Assembly: GCA_965224195.1 (NCBI GenBank) | Contig: OZ245040.1 | Location: 160,001-224,000, forward strand | Source of the DNA: Nitrosopumilus sp. | Lineage (GTDB): Archaea > Thermoproteota > Nitrososphaeria > Nitrososphaerales > Nitrosopumilaceae | Length of the DNA stretch: 64,000 nucleotides | Reading direction: 5' to 3' | Shown: positions 13,067-48,136 of the stretch, one piece after another | Layout of the letters: every line of letters starts with the position of its first letter | Position numbering within the stretch: position 1 is the first letter of the stretch | Notes under the pieces: model-generated | Seen by the model: only the letters and a program-made list of their open reading frames with translations | Told to the model about the DNA's origin: nothing | Database searches by the model: none | Position numbers and translations under genes: made by a program

Positions 13067-13885
13067 TTGTTGAGATTAACAGGTAAAATTGCTCTAGTAA
13101 CTGGTGGAAGTCGTGGAATAGGATTAGCAACTGCAAAAATCCTATCAGAAAATGGTACGACAGTAGCAATTACTGCAAAAGACAAAGACAGATTAGAAAA
13201 TGCAGTAAAAGAGATTCCTAATGCTATAGGTATTGCAGGTAACATTAGAAATTCAAAAGATGTAAAAAATGTTGTAAATAAAATAATTGAAAAATTTGGT
13301 AAATTAGATATTCTTGTAAATAATGCTGGAATCTTTCCCAAAATAAAACAATTACACGAAATTGATGAAGATGAATGGAATGAGGTATTAGATGTAAATC
13401 TCACAGGACAGTATAGATTTACCAAGGAAGCAATTCCTTATTTACAGAAAACATCTGGTTCAATAATTAACATTTCATCAGATGCTGGAATAAAGGCATA
13501 TCAAGGATTTAATGCAGACGCATATTCTGCATCAAAAGCTGCGTTGATTTTATTAACAAAATGTTGGGCATTAGAATACTCTAAAGATAAGATCAGAGTT
13601 AATTGCATTTGTCCAGAGGACTTGTCCTGCATCGAATCAAGCAGGGTGGTAGCCTAAAGATAAGATCAGAGTTAATTGCATTTGTCCAGGGTAGTGGATA
13701 CAGATATGACAAAACCATTTTTGAAGACTGAAAAAGACAAGGAATTCATAAATGGTGAACATCCTATTGGTAGGATTGGACAACCTAGTGAAGTTGGAAA
13801 AGCAGTTTTGTATTTTGCCTCAGACGATGCATTATGGACAACAGGTGCAATATTGACTGTAGATGGAGGGGAATCAATTAAATGA
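13067..13885 (+). pseudogene. Short-chain dehydrogenase/reductase interrupted by a 36-bp duplication plus 37-bp insert
   Basis: TGGSRGIG, NNAG, YSASK, RVNCICP; C-terminal half VVDTDMT...VDGG resumes after the insertion in another frame. Confidence 0.88.
13581..13689. repeat. Perfect 36-bp direct repeats flanking a 37-bp unique insert
   Basis: ctaaagataagatcagagttaattgcatttgtccag at 13581-13616 and 13654-13689; insert at 13617-13653. Confidence 0.95.
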
Positions 13886-13925
13886 ATTCACAGGGATTTA
13901 ATACAACACCAAAGGAGAAAACACA

Positions 13926-14132
13926 ATGAAAGACAGAAAAGCAAAAGCAAAATTGATTATACTTTTAGGAATTATTTGGATAGTTATTACACTGCCTCTA
14001 CCATGGATAATAAATAATCCAGAGGTATCAACTGCACAATTCAATACTATACTTGCCATCATTGGCGTAATGTCAATTCCATTCATTATTCTCGGAGTGG
14101 TCTGGACTCTAAAGCCAGAACTCACAACTTAG
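13926..14132 (+). CDS. Small two-helix membrane protein
   Basis: Two hydrophobic segments; GGAG upstream of ATG. Confidence 0.75.
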   Translation: MKDRKAKAKLIILLGIIWIVITLPLPWIINNPEVSTAQFNTILAIIGVMSIPFIILGVVWTLKPELTT

Positions 14133-14142
14133 GTAATTTCAA

Positions 14143-14955
14143 TTGCAAGATATCCCAATTTCTGATAAGATTCCTGAATTAGATATTGCTATCAAGGCTG
14201 CAATTGAAGCAGGTAATGCAATTCTAGAGATTTATCAGAAAAACTACAAAACATCTACAAAAAATGATGATTCTCCAATTACAGATGCTGATTTGAAAAG
14301 CAACGAGGTCATTAAAGAGATTTTATCACAAACAAAACATTGGATATTATCTGAAGAAGATAAAGATGATCTAGGTAGATTATCACAAGAGACAATTTGG
14401 ATAGTAGATCCTCTTGATGGGACTTCAGATTTCATTGACAAAACAGGTGAGTTTACAGTTATGATTTCCTTAATTAAAAATAAAAAACCAATTCTTGGTG
14501 TAATTGGATGGCCTACAGAAAATACATTGTTTGTTGCTCAAAAAGGTAGTGGAGCATTTAGATTTTCAAATGAAAAATGGGAAAAAATTTCTGTTACTAA
14601 AACTTCAGAAGTCCCAAAATGTAGAACTGTAGGCTCTAGACATCATTTATCTGAGAAAGAAAAATCATTCATTAAAAAATTAGGTATTGAAGATTTCACA
14701 AGTATTGGTAGTTCATTAAAAGTTGGAAAGATTAGTTCTGGTGAAGCTGAAGCATACATTACAACAACAAATAAAATGAAAGAGTGGGATTCGGCCGCTT
14801 CATATTGTATAATTTCAGAAGCTGGAGGTAAAATGACAGATATGTTAGGAAATGATCTTACATACAATAACAAAGATGTGTATCATCAAAACGGAATTCT
14901 TGTCACAAACGGTTTAGTTCATAATAAAATAATTGAAGAATTTAAAAAATTATAG
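14143..14955 (+). CDS. cysQ: 3'(2'),5'-bisphosphate nucleotidase
   Basis: SPITDAD, WIVDPLDGT, GSSLK, EWDSAA; adjacent to cysC. Confidence 0.9.
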   Translation: MQDIPISDKIPELDIAIKAAIEAGNAILEIYQKNYKTSTKNDDSPITDADLKSNEVIKEILSQTKHWILSEEDKDDLGRLSQETIWIVDPLDGTSDFIDKTGEFTVMISLIKNKKPILGVIGWPTENTLFVAQKGSGAFRFSNEKWEKISVTKTSEVPKCRTVGSRHHLSEKEKSFIKKLGIEDFTSIGSSLKVGKISSGEAEAYITTTNKMKEWDSAASYCIISEAGGKMTDMLGNDLTYNNKDVYHQNGILVTNGLVHNKIIEEFKKL

Positions 14956-33514: not shown

Positions 33515-34960
33515 ATGAAAAAGGAGTTATCCTTTGCATTAAACTATGCATTAAACAAAGGATTTCAGATTCATCCAGATGCTTTTAAAATATTAGAAAA
33601 TGTAGATGTTAAAAAATTAGAGAAAATAATTAAAGAAATTGTAAGAGAGAAGACAAAGCAAAAATTATTTCAGATTAGCCAGGATGATTTAGAAACTTAT
33701 CTTGGAATTAAAGAAGATTTATCATTACAGAGTGAAATCAAAATAATATCAGACCCTACTAGTAAGATTACATCTGGAGAGGGGGTAAAAGGATACAATG
33801 CTTTGTTTTCTAGCCGTTTTAACAAGCTTAAACGAATCATCTCAGATAGACCAGAATCAAAACTACTCAAATCTGCGGCATCTCTAAAAAATACAAAAAT
33901 CGATGATGACCAGTATGTATGCGGACTAGTTACAATTAGAAATTCTGAGAGAAACATCACAAAGATAGTTCTGGAGGATCCTTCAGGCTCATTTGAGGGT
34001 ATAATTTTTGATGAGGAATTGCAAAAAACCGCAGAAACTTTGCTAATAGATCAATTCGTCATGGCAAGAATAGGTTCTGCTAAAAACTCAGGATATATCA
34101 TCAAAGATCTTATTTTACCAGACATTCTAGAGCAGGCAAAAAACAAGTCAGAAAGTGACACATATGCAGTCTTTCTATCTGACTTGCATATCGGAAGCAA
34201 ATACTTCATGGAAGAAGAATTTTTACAATTTGTATCATGGATTTCCAGTCCAGATCTTGTTGCAAGAAAAATTCGATTTATCCTAATTGGAGGTGATATA
34301 GTGGATGGTGTTGGAATTTATCCTAATCAAAATAAAGAATTGGTTTGTCAGACAATCCAAGAGCAATTAAAAAAAGCAGAAAATTTGATTGATAAGATTC
34401 CCAAAAATGTAAAAATCATCATTATGCCAGGAAACCACGATCCTGGTAGAAGAGCATTGCCACAACCTGCCATCCCTAAAAAATACAATTCAGGTCTATG
34501 GGAGAGGGAAAATGTAATGATGGTTGGTAATCCGGCAGTGATATCATTAAATGGAGTTATCGTCTCAATGTTTCATGGACAAAGTATAGATGATATTGTA
34601 AAGACCACACCTGGTCTTAGTTATGACAGACCTACCAATGTAATGAAACATCTGCTCAAAGCAAGACATCTTAGTCCAATTTATGGTAGTCAGACACCAA
34701 TTGCGCCTGAAATGGAGGATTTGATGGTAATTCAAGACATTCCAGATATTTTTCATGTAGGCCATGTTCACCGAGCCCAATTAGACATGTACAAAGGAAT
34801 TTTGTTGATAAATTCTGGTTCTTGGCAAAAACAAACCCCTTTTCAGGCCAGTGTAGGAATGATCCCAAATCCAGGTATTGCCATAATTGTTAATCTAAAA
34901 ACCTTCCAAGTCTTCCATGAAAATTATAGTTCTAATTTAGATAATGTCTTGCAAACTTAG
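33515..34960 (+). CDS. polB: DNA polymerase D small (exonuclease) subunit DP1
   Basis: SDLHIGS, GDIVDG, PGNHD, FHG, GHVH calcineurin-like motifs; likely start MKKEL. Confidence 0.93.
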   Translation: MKKELSFALNYALNKGFQIHPDAFKILENVDVKKLEKIIKEIVREKTKQKLFQISQDDLETYLGIKEDLSLQSEIKIISDPTSKITSGEGVKGYNALFSSRFNKLKRIISDRPESKLLKSAASLKNTKIDDDQYVCGLVTIRNSERNITKIVLEDPSGSFEGIIFDEELQKTAETLLIDQFVMARIGSAKNSGYIIKDLILPDILEQAKNKSESDTYAVFLSDLHIGSKYFMEEEFLQFVSWISSPDLVARKIRFILIGGDIVDGVGIYPNQNKELVCQTIQEQLKKAENLIDKIPKNVKIIIMPGNHDPGRRALPQPAIPKKYNSGLWERENVMMVGNPAVISLNGVIVSMFHGQSIDDIVKTTPGLSYDRPTNVMKHLLKARHLSPIYGSQTPIAPEMEDLMVIQDIPDIFHVGHVHRAQLDMYKGILLINSGSWQKQTPFQASVGMIPNPGIAIIVNLKTFQVFHENYSSNLDNVLQT

Positions 34961-36145
34961 ATCATCTTTGAATGATTTTTTTATCATTTCAGATGATATT
35001 GTGAGTTTGTATTTTTTTGTCCTTCCATGAATGCCTTGATGAATTAGTCTTCCAGAAATAATTCCAGACAATTCAATTTCACTTAGCATTTGTGTAATTC
35101 TTCTTTGAGTAAGTTCGTCTTTTCCTAATGTCTTACAAAGATTTTTGTAAGAAGAATAAATTTCACCAGTTGAAGAGCCATTAGCCTTCATTATGGCTAT
35201 AATTACCAATTTTTCATGAAGTGGGTATGATTTGAGGGAGGCTTCTTCTTTGTTTTCTTCAATTTTTAAAGAGGCTTCCCTGACATGCTCAATTGTGACT
35301 TTGTCAGATTGTTGTCTTTCTGCAAGTTCGCCTGATACACGAAGTAGATCAATGGCCCTTCTAGCATCACCATGTTCCCCTCCTGCAAGGGCGGCACAGA
35401 GGTTTAAGGCTGGTTCTTCTATGGAATTTTCAATAAAAGATTCGTTGATTCTCTCTTCAAGAATTTTTTTAATTTGTTCAACATTATAATTTGTAAAGAC
35501 AATCTCTTCTTCTCCTAGACTACTAATCACTCTAGGATCTAGTTTTTCTTTGAATGTTAAGTCATTTGAAATTCCTACCATAGTTAGAGAACCTTGTTTT
35601 AATTGCTCATTTGCCCTTGTTAATTGATATAGAATATCCTTGCCTGTTTTCGCTACTAGTTGGGCAAGATAATCAATCTCATCAATTACAAAAATTGCAT
35701 TAAGTTTTCCCTCATCAATTTTGTTTAGTAGCCTTTTGAAGACTTCGCTAATAGCAAGCCCATTTGAGGGTAATTCGTCTTGTTCTAGGCCTAATTGCCT
35801 GCCTAGACTGACTAATAATCCGTATAATGTAGTCTCATTTTTTGAATTAGAATATACAAGTTTGATTGGAAAGTTTGATTTCTCAACTCTTTCTTGAATT
35901 TTAGATAATACTTTTTTTACAACTAATGTTTTACCAGTTCCAGGTTTTCCATAAACTAAAAGATTTGATGGTCTGGATTGTTTTAGAATTGGTAATAGAG
36001 ATTGAGTAACTTGTTCTTGTTCATTTTTTCTATGTAAGATGGTATTTGGAATATATGTAAAATGAAGTATATCACGGTTTTTAATAATTGATTTTCCAGA
36101 TTCAGCTGCATCAAGTAAATCATCTATCGGATCAGACATACTCAC
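34937..36145 (-). CDS. cdc6: Orc1/Cdc6 replication initiator
   Basis: GKPGTGKT, IDEID, GDARRAIDLLR, C-terminal winged helix with GRT. Confidence 0.95.
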   Translation of the reverse strand: MSMSDPIDDLLDAAESGKSIIKNRDILHFTYIPNTILHRKNEQEQVTQSLLPILKQSRPSNLLVYGKPGTGKTLVVKKVLSKIQERVEKSNFPIKLVYSNSKNETTLYGLLVSLGRQLGLEQDELPSNGLAISEVFKRLLNKIDEGKLNAIFVIDEIDYLAQLVAKTGKDILYQLTRANEQLKQGSLTMVGISNDLTFKEKLDPRVISSLGEEEIVFTNYNVEQIKKILEERINESFIENSIEEPALNLCAALAGGEHGDARRAIDLLRVSGELAERQQSDKVTIEHVREASLKIEENKEEASLKSYPLHEKLVIIAIMKANGSSTGEIYSSYKNLCKTLGKDELTQRRITQMLSEIELSGIISGRLIHQGIHGRTKKYKLTISSEMIKKSFKDDLSLQDII

Positions 36146-36626
36146 ACACCTTCATTTCTTCTCAACACTAATACAACTATATCTGAATTAAGAGAGTATA
36201 GAATAATAATAGTAGTTTAGTTTGTAATTAATTATTTTTAGTTAGTTTTAGATTTTCTATTAAAAAAAAATTAAAAAAAACATAGAGTGGAAATATCGGT
36301 GTGTGGGTTTAATCCTAAATTAGGAGTGAGTTAACAAAATTGTTAATTTAGTGTTAAGAAATGTCTGAAAAAGCCCATTTTAACCCCATTATTTCCACTC
36401 CAGGCGTTAAGATGGATGTTAACACTGTGAATATCTTCAATCTAACCCCATTATTTCCACTCCAGGCATGAAATTATCTTAATTTAGGGGACTAATTATG
36501 AATTAATTATTAATAACAAAATATACTCTAGGCGTGGCTCAGGCAGTCAATGTTAACAAACCACTTAGTTAACAAATATTCTGAGATCATTTCAACTGTT
36601 AACATCTGATCAGTTAGATCTCAAAG
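36146..36626. other. Probable replication origin oriC
   Basis: Intergenic region upstream of cdc6 with very AT-rich tract (~36200-36280), two identical 25-bp ORB-like repeats TAACCCCATTATTTCCACTCCAGGC (36381-36405, 36443-36467) and an inverted core GAGTGGAAATA (36285-36295). Confidence 0.88.
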
Positions 36627-47578: not shown

Positions 47579-48136
47579 ATGTCAGAATCAAATCAAATCG
47601 ATATCAACTCTTTACATCATATAGTTTTACGTGAAATTGAAGATGATTCAATTTCAGAAATTGATCCTAATTTTTACAGAAATTTAGCTGATTTCATTGG
47701 AAATTTACAAAAACAAGAATTTGATGGAGTAGAAAATAAAATTAAAGATACTATGGTAGAGATGGTAACAGAATTAACATCATTATTAATAGAAATTAGA
47801 CTAGATAAAATTTCAAAAAATTCTGATTTAGAAATAAGTTATTTACTAGATGAAGAAAAATTCATTCTTGATTCACAAGAAGATCAGAAAGAAAGAATAG
47901 AAATGATTGTATCGGCAACAATTAATGGAAAATCAAAATTTCTAGAATCATTAGCCCAAAATCATAAAACAAAAAAAATTGTTATTCGATTCTTACATAA
48001 AGTAGATGAAATTGTTGGTGCAGATCTTGAAAAATATGGTCCTTTTAAGACTGAAGATATAGCTACTATTCCATATGAGAATGCTCAGGCTTTAATTGCA
48101 AAAAATGTAGCAACTAAGGTTCATTTGGAAGACTAG
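47579..48136 (+). CDS. DNA replication GINS family protein
   Basis: RLDKI...LLDEEK; C-terminal B domain VGADLEKYGPF..EDIATIP..NA. Confidence 0.85.
   Translation: MSESNQIDINSLHHIVLREIEDDSISEIDPNFYRNLADFIGNLQKQEFDGVENKIKDTMVEMVTELTSLLIEIRLDKISKNSDLEISYLLDEEKFILDSQEDQKERIEMIVSATINGKSKFLESLAQNHKTKKIVIRFLHKVDEIVGADLEKYGPFKTEDIATIPYENAQALIAKNVATKVHLED

Follow-up and report, generated by a model that had tools for sequence, protein, structure and literature searches.

An SDR gene of the archaeal genome G000 carries a scar that very probably arose when a CRISPR adaptation complex, most likely the type I-G Cas4/Cas1-Cas2, carried out one off-target, full-site integration of a spacer. The geometry of the scar, its empty ancestral site, the donor of the inserted sequence, the presence of the machinery in the same genome and the recurrence of similar structures along the chromosome were all observed. 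The mechanism is already known; the completeness of the evidence and the genome-wide density are what make the scar of interest. G000 comprises 2.07 Mb in 2 contigs at 33.6% G+C, with a chromosome (C1) of 2.06 Mb, and is archaeal by its ribosomal proteins and its Orc1/Cdc6 and GINS genes. The window analysed here is a stretch of 64,000 nucleotides (C1:160001-224000), and positions given without a prefix are window positions.

The original prediction described a perfect 36-bp duplication around a 37-bp insert inside the SDR gene, and this was borne out in full: the two copies are identical at 36 of 36 positions, start 73 nt apart and cannot be extended by one base on either side (T versus C before, A versus G after), and the intervening 37 nt bear no relation to the flanks. 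As had also been claimed, the insert is GC-rich (20/37, compared with 33.6% for the chromosome) and holds a potential hairpin pair, present as the inverted pair CCTGC/GCAGG. An exact 36-mer repeated at a spacing of 73 nt is beyond chance, the background periods of the genome-wide scan described below holding 0-2 non-tandem pairs each.

The gene is indeed destroyed. Its N-terminal part (PF00106, adh_short, E 4e-55, profile positions 1-180 of 195) belongs to an ORF that crosses repeat 1 and the insert and ends at a TAA in repeat 2, and its C-terminal part (PF13561, adh_short_C2, profile positions 175-234 of 236, E 4e-13) is left severed from the start. With a net addition of 73-1 = 72 nt, the latter has returned to the original frame. 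The base said to be lost just after repeat 2 is missing as stated: in an alignment, the window has a single G between CCAG and GTAGT where six same-genus relatives have GA or GT. The loss was confirmed by a 7032-nt unitig of run X18 over 13660-14300, with 0 differences, and by unitigs of run X19, likewise with 0 differences. The canonical integration reaction does not account for this deletion, which counts against the integration reading; it may be a later slip in the G run.

Table 1. Coordinates of the SDR scar and of related features (window positions, or chromosome positions where prefixed with C1)
Feature	Position	Strand	Description
SDR N-terminal part	13067..13580	+	Upstream of the duplicated segment; ORF 13067-13657
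Repeat 1, left copy of target	13581..13616	+	36 nt of SDR coding sequence; single copy in six aligned relatives
Spacer-like insert	13617..13653	+	37 nt; matches a resident multi-copy element, in its PD-(D/E)XK nuclease gene
Repeat 2, right copy of target	13654..13689	+	Shifted frame: TAA at 13655, 13661 and 13673
1-nt deletion site	13690..13691	+	Gly codon (GGA/GGT in relatives) without its third base
SDR C-terminal part	13691..13885	+	Original frame; ORF 13676-13885 in frame of 13067
Insert donor	35937-35966	-	In Orc1/Cdc6 gene 34937-36145; 2 mismatches over 36; insert at C1:907258
Insert donor	47965-47998	-	In GINS51 gene 47579-48136; insert at C1:898236
PD-(D/E)XK gene family	C1:282550, 794041, 1511833, 1625072		Plus fragments; expanded in G000 only
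cas1 genes	C1:714347, 947177, 1455266		Three CRISPR loci
Array A	C1:707205-713740		90 copies of 36-nt repeat; type I-G
Array B			69 copies of 30-nt repeat; Cas4-Cas1b-Cas2 module
Array C			132 copies of 37-nt repeat, spacers 35-36 nt; type I-B
Ectopic units, examples	C1:3947, 682088, 703813, 739057, 882675, 886994, 898236, 907258, 911485, 912527
Ectopic units, further examples	C1:912671, 1228750, 1326525, 1363425, 1692970, 1698884, 1745573, 1892823, 2053228

Reads support the structure as real DNA. Exact unitigs span both junctions at approximately chromosomal depth in X18 and X19 (13587-13646 for repeat 1/insert, 13618-13683 for insert/repeat 2): their depths are 407 and 397 against a flank of 486.5 in X18, and 111 and 110 against 107.6 in X19, and the unitig of the 36-nt repeat itself lies at ~2x flank depth. 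Raw Hi-C reads from a third run of the same study covered the region with no indel or joint carried by at least 3 reads; one Hi-C read skips the SDR unit. X18 and X19 are perhaps the source data of the assembly, which means that misassembly is excluded but that the runs are not independent biology, and contig data are blind to a minority of insert-free cells, the empty allele having no 31-mer of its own. The junction unitigs stand at 0.82-0.84 of flank depth in X18 and at ~1.0 in X19, and the donor-gene unitigs comprise three variants with depths of 985, 223 and 77; these depth differences and variants may reflect a mixed population or extrachromosomal copies.

Comparison of homologous sequences showed the SDR site to be ancestrally empty. 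A 601-nt query spanning the site finds a match to each of its halves in 13 same-genus genomes, and in the relatives with checked coordinates, G015, G012 and G003 among them, the two matches overlap by a single 36-mer. The six aligned relatives have no insert. In addition, contigs of relatives in the marine metagenome X1 skip 13617-13690 and have GA, GT or TGGA there.

The insert is neither an IS end nor an adapter, origins that would have spoken against the original prediction; it is an internal piece of a multi-copy island gene of the same genome. Its counterparts, each over exactly 37 nt and with non-SDR flanks, are C1:1512390-1512426 (+, 1 mismatch) and C1:794137-794173 (-, 3 mismatches). 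The two matches lie inside a gene of 232 aa with a weak match to PD-(D/E)XK nucleases (PF12705), located in two mosaic islands together with restriction-modification genes, transposases and many unassigned ORFs. Within G000 this gene is matched 11 times, by four full-length copies (86-100% identity), by fragments and by one distant copy, and 47 of 60 other genomes of the genus contain only a 31-38% homolog, a distribution that has the pattern expected of a repeated mobile element. Among the viral_contigs, the exact 37-mer had 0 matches and the PD-(D/E)XK protein no relative.

No PAM was recognised in the flanks of the protospacer, a point against the integration reading. The upstream trinucleotide is TCC, or TCA on the other strand, and the bacterial I-G PAM is TTN (PMC6547450), which may differ in this archaeon; the six inserts with a genomic source likewise had no common flank motif. 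No native PAM could be derived because the native spacers (288 of G000; 648 of G000, G009 and G051) found no protospacer in four genomes or genome parts, except for one ectopic unit of G009 described below. Native G000 spacers had no match to their own chromosome, as expected since such spacers would be self-targeting. At C1:1626224-1626330, ~500 nt from one copy of the PD-(D/E)XK gene, we observed an orphan I-G-like repeat (4 mismatches to array A) with a 38-nt spacer and a truncated second repeat, and solitary B-like repeats (5-6 mismatches) were found at C1:790579 and C1:795315, in an island with another PD-(D/E)XK copy. The mobile islands seem to carry mini-arrays or solitary repeats.

The window holds no cas genes, as had been noted, the three cas1 genes of the chromosome all lying outside it. 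G000 nevertheless encodes three complete adaptation modules, with a Cas1 gene and a Cas2 gene next to each of its three arrays (three of each in all); no Cas1 was found in G000 outside these CRISPR loci, and no casposase is encoded. Array A is accompanied by a Cas4g/Cas1g fusion (714.7 bits), Cas3g, Csb2 and Cas7g, with Cas2 alongside. When the scar was set against native repeat and spacer lengths, the agreement was with this array: the 36-nt duplication equals its 36-nt repeat, and the 37-nt insert equals the commonest length of its 89 spacers (37 nt in 31, followed by 36 nt in 30). Only in array A is 36/37 the modal combination of repeat and spacer.

The original prediction called the event a "neo-CRISPR" ectopic acquisition. 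The off-target integration is supported, whereas the label is overstated, the structure being a single repeat-spacer-repeat without the signs of a working array. Folding of the native I-G repeat gives a hairpin with a 7-bp stem (-8.2 kcal/mol, z -2.8), while the SDR 36-mer, at -1.8 or -0.2 kcal/mol, is no more stable than shuffled sequences, and its unit holds one spacer only. Because the repeat hairpin is absent, we regard the SDR unit as probably an inert scar that inactivates the gene, and not as a working mini-array.

The following course of events would give rise to the scar. The complex would have captured a 37-bp prespacer from the PD-(D/E)XK gene of the multi-copy mobile island, or from an unseen relative of it. 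The two 3' ends of the prespacer would then have attacked both strands of the SDR gene 36 bp apart, a spacing that the complex would normally measure across its own 36-bp repeat, and gap filling would have duplicated the 36 bp on either side of the spacer. We infer these steps, as well as the identity of the acting module among the three.

The genome scan for other such duplications that had been proposed was run and found more of them. C1 was scanned for non-tandem direct repeat pairs outside arrays, matching at 23/24 positions or better, 30-200 nt apart and with only two copies allowed within ~500 nt. Of 88 rows, 37 were at periods 70-76, compared with 0-2 per period elsewhere between 30 and 119; a second cluster of rows was seen at periods 120 and 150-156. 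Merging duplicate rows gave 41 units at periods 64-80. Four were removed on inspection, namely 690217 (multi-copy insert), 1073462 (repetitive gene), 813401 (repetitive stretch) and 1277616 (tandem-duplication signature), and 778950 was removed by a tandem test, leaving 36 units in the 2.06-Mb chromosome with the SDR scar included. The search thus returned ~35 further units, with a sharp peak at periods 70-76.

The 35 units outside the window have repeats of ~30-46 nt, inserts of 29-41 nt and periods of 66-80 nt with a mode at 73. None lies between 200 and 600 kb of C1, and 11 lie between 700 and 1000 kb. Copies are perfect in 17 of the 37 units examined and differ by 1-2 mismatches in the rest, and this spread suggests events of different ages. 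Relatives are empty at four further sites (882675, 886994, 898236 and 907258), and three other units sit in strain-specific DNA. Sixteen units fall in a restorable ORF of at least 150 aa; 10 of them break the ORF and 6 leave it open with 24-25 extra codons. Selection for in-frame units was considered and dropped, as 13 of 36 periods are divisible by 3 and ~1/3 is expected by chance. Two results on the targets count against the integration reading: base counts at the boundaries of the 17 perfect units gave no clear target motif, and random 36-mers came as close to the native repeats, by best identity, as the 36 targets did (z 0.1-0.5).

For at least 6 of the 36 inserts, the chromosome contains the sequence a second time. 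The Orc1/Cdc6 and GINS51 genes of the window (Table 1) are donors, or close homologs of donors, of ectopic inserts, and these two inserts can be called self-derived because the orthologues of relatives match them too. Counting a third donor, at C1:234869, a stretch of 39 kb holds three of the five chromosomal sources (post hoc P ~0.01). Prespacer capture may have a hot spot near the origin; the GC skew of G000 indicated no origin.

Three further structures were noted along the chromosome. The stretch C1:1090832-1091014 contains a nested unit, X(37)-Y(36)-Z(~37)-Y(36)-X(37), in which a second spacer seems to have integrated exactly into a first ectopic spacer; this region had no match in the relatives. 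A 29-nt imperfect pair at 36379-36469 of the window (d=62) was rejected as an integration unit, since the same structure occurs in the homologous sequence of G051, which marks it as an old internal repeat of a gene. Finally, a ~1.1-kb element at C1:896589-897658 has counterparts in more than 30 places in G017 and in several in G015, at 70-76% identity; it probably represents an insertion sequence that multiplied in these genomes.

Cas1 is present in 24 of the 61 genomes of the genus that were searched for it. The same scan was applied to 0.8 Mb of each of three other genomes, the stretches of G009 and G051 being chosen around cas loci, so that densities are only roughly comparable. G009, which belongs to another species, has an I-G array with 131 copies of a 36-nt repeat and a B-type array. 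In its sample, 18 of 24 rows (17 loci) were at periods 70-74. One of its units, at C1:1872101-1872208, is an exact 36-nt duplication around a 36-nt insert, and this insert has 35 nt in common with native I-G spacer 12 of the same genome (C1:1995542-1995581), the ends being trimmed by 5 and 1 nt. The pair represents an independent capture of one protospacer, and no other observation ties the scars to I-G adaptation as directly. Spacer 12 could target its own chromosome, which the cell presumably tolerates because a PAM is missing. In G018 (no Cas1, 53% G+C), six rows at period 75 all came from one repetitive gene cluster, and the 0.8 Mb contained no convincing unit and at most two doubtful ones. 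G051, with I-G only (array of 122+10 repeats), yielded ~1-3 candidate units, a result that counts against the integration reading; few units in spite of I-G mean that I-G alone does not predict a burst.

A variant of this explanation, which we hold to be unlikely, is that the same reaction was carried out by another module of G000, either type I-B (array C, with a slip of 1 nt from its 37-nt ruler) or the Cas4-Cas1b-Cas2 module of array B. Both modules are intact, and duplication lengths across the genome do not separate module A from C: exact duplications peak at 37 nt (9 units) before 36 nt (6 units), which favours the variant, as do two exact 30-nt duplications at ~912673 and 1228750, equal in length to the array B repeat and fitting module B. 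For the SDR scar, however, the duplication is exactly 36 nt, with boundaries that are unambiguous because the protospacer match is exactly 37 nt, and array A alone has the modal 36/37. In addition, the G009 sample, in which no 37-nt-repeat array was found, has units at periods 72-74 and none at 66-67. It is because of the exact 36-nt duplication that the SDR scar is assigned to the I-G module.

Less probable again is an undescribed non-CRISPR process that adds ~72 nt by inserting a short copy of the cell's own DNA, often a hairpin, with a compensating duplication of the target. The second chromosomal copies of at least 6 of the 36 inserts would suit such a process, as would the scarcity of units in G051 and a few units that pair a long duplication with a short insert (43/32, 46/34 and 49/29). 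The inserts, however, are not hairpin-prone: their mean MFE is -1.45 (native spacers -1.85, random 36-mers -1.48), and z is below -2 in 2 of 36. Nor is the period, with an sd of 1.88, tighter than that of the native array (1.29). Mean G+C is 0.41 in the ectopic inserts, equal to the 0.42 of native spacers, and 0.34 in random genomic 36-mers, and the 35 nt common to the G009 insert and a native I-G spacer also argue against this process.

Replication template switching or microhomology-mediated repair, which would have copied 37 nt of the island gene and duplicated a 36-nt piece of the target, is very improbable. It could draw on short palindromes at the junctions (GTCC-AGA-GGAC and GGAC-TT-GTCC) and on the 1-nt deletion adjoining repeat 2; it gives no reason for 36 units at the native CRISPR period, and the donor flanks share no microhomology with the target. 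The footprint of a transposon, MITE or casposon, for which the 5-bp inverted pair of the insert might speak, and an assembly artefact have together a negligible probability: the insert is internal coding sequence of another gene and not an element end, a short target duplication (2-15 bp; 13-14 bp for casposases, PMC8464041) would be expected in place of 36 nt, the only Cas1 genes of G000 are those of its CRISPR loci, and exact junction unitigs exist in two runs.

Off-target integration by the CRISPR adaptation complex, the explanation we prefer, has precedents. Non-canonical "neo-CRISPR" integration was reported for the type I-E system of E. coli with over-produced Cas1-Cas2 by Nivala, Shipman and Church in 2018 (Nat Microbiol 3:310, as cited in 10.1101/148544, PMC7054753 and PMC6698737). 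As there, the SDR scar has an insert of spacer length and a duplication of a non-CRISPR target equal to the native repeat length. The E. coli events require the adaptation complex; for the present scars, a dependence on Cas1 is hinted at indirectly, by the G009 insert with 35 nt of a native spacer and by the lack of convincing units in 0.8 Mb of the Cas1-less G018. Unlike them, the present case is natural and free of over-expression, archaeal and of type I-G, with 36/37 rather than 28/33, and it is fixed at about chromosomal depth, with 36 units in one genome and targets without detectable likeness to the repeat. Natural evidence for off-target integration has been described as "circumstantial" so far and comes from two other species (10.1101/148544). 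In vitro, Cas1-Cas2 of Pyrococcus furiosus performs off-target integration (PMC6698737), which resembles the present case in being full-site integration into non-CRISPR DNA by an archaeal Cas1-Cas2; the P. furiosus sites have sequence features of the repeat according to the same source, whereas none were found in the G000 targets. Likeness to the repeat or to the leader-repeat junction, as reported for E. coli and P. furiosus off-target sites, is a tendency and not a definition.

Three other systems bear a partial resemblance. The type I-U/I-G Cas4/1-Cas2 of Geobacter sulfurreducens, studied at its array, takes up spacers predominantly of 36 bp with TTN PAMs (PMC6547450); it shares the Cas4/Cas1 fusion with G000 and differs from the SDR case in the protospacer flank (TCC/TCA here) and in the target, which is here a chromosomal gene. 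The family 1 casposase of Ca. Nitrosopumilus koreensis is a ruler-using integrase of the Cas1 family that duplicates its target and inserts short oligonucleotides in vitro (PMC8464041), but it is sequence-specific and its duplication is 13 bp, and G000 encodes no such enzyme. In Streptococcus thermophilus, "ectopic" spacer acquisition occurs inside arrays (PMC7999890); the spacer is likewise placed away from the leader-proximal repeat, but at a true repeat, whereas here it is in a protein-coding gene. In the literature searched, with partial coverage of subscription papers, no description of a natural genome carrying such units by the dozen came to light. Within the same partial coverage, no report was found of off-target integration by type I-G or in this archaeal group.

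Off-target Cas1-Cas2 integration is regarded as a rare and harmful side reaction, known mainly from engineered E. coli and test-tube work. The SDR case is natural and brings all elements together in one genome, namely the empty site, the donor, the matching array and the read support, and such scars recur dozens of times across two species. We consider it reasonably probable that, in at least two species of the genus, a CRISPR integrase, probably the I-G Cas4/1-Cas2, writes spacers across the chromosome to the extent of ~18-21 fixed units/Mb, many of the spacers coming from host DNA that would be intolerable in a true array, with at least 10 ORFs of G000 broken and ~6 extended by 24-25 codons. 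The scars would then record the self-derived spacers that a real array could not keep, giving an uncensored view of captured DNA. Several questions are made testable in this way: which factor keeps the integrase on target, given G051 with its few scars; what CRISPR adaptation costs the host in broken genes; and whether the scars serve as seeds of new arrays or protein segments. If this holds true, CRISPR adaptation would, beyond immune memory, be a substantial natural cause of insertional mutation and would supply new coding sequence.
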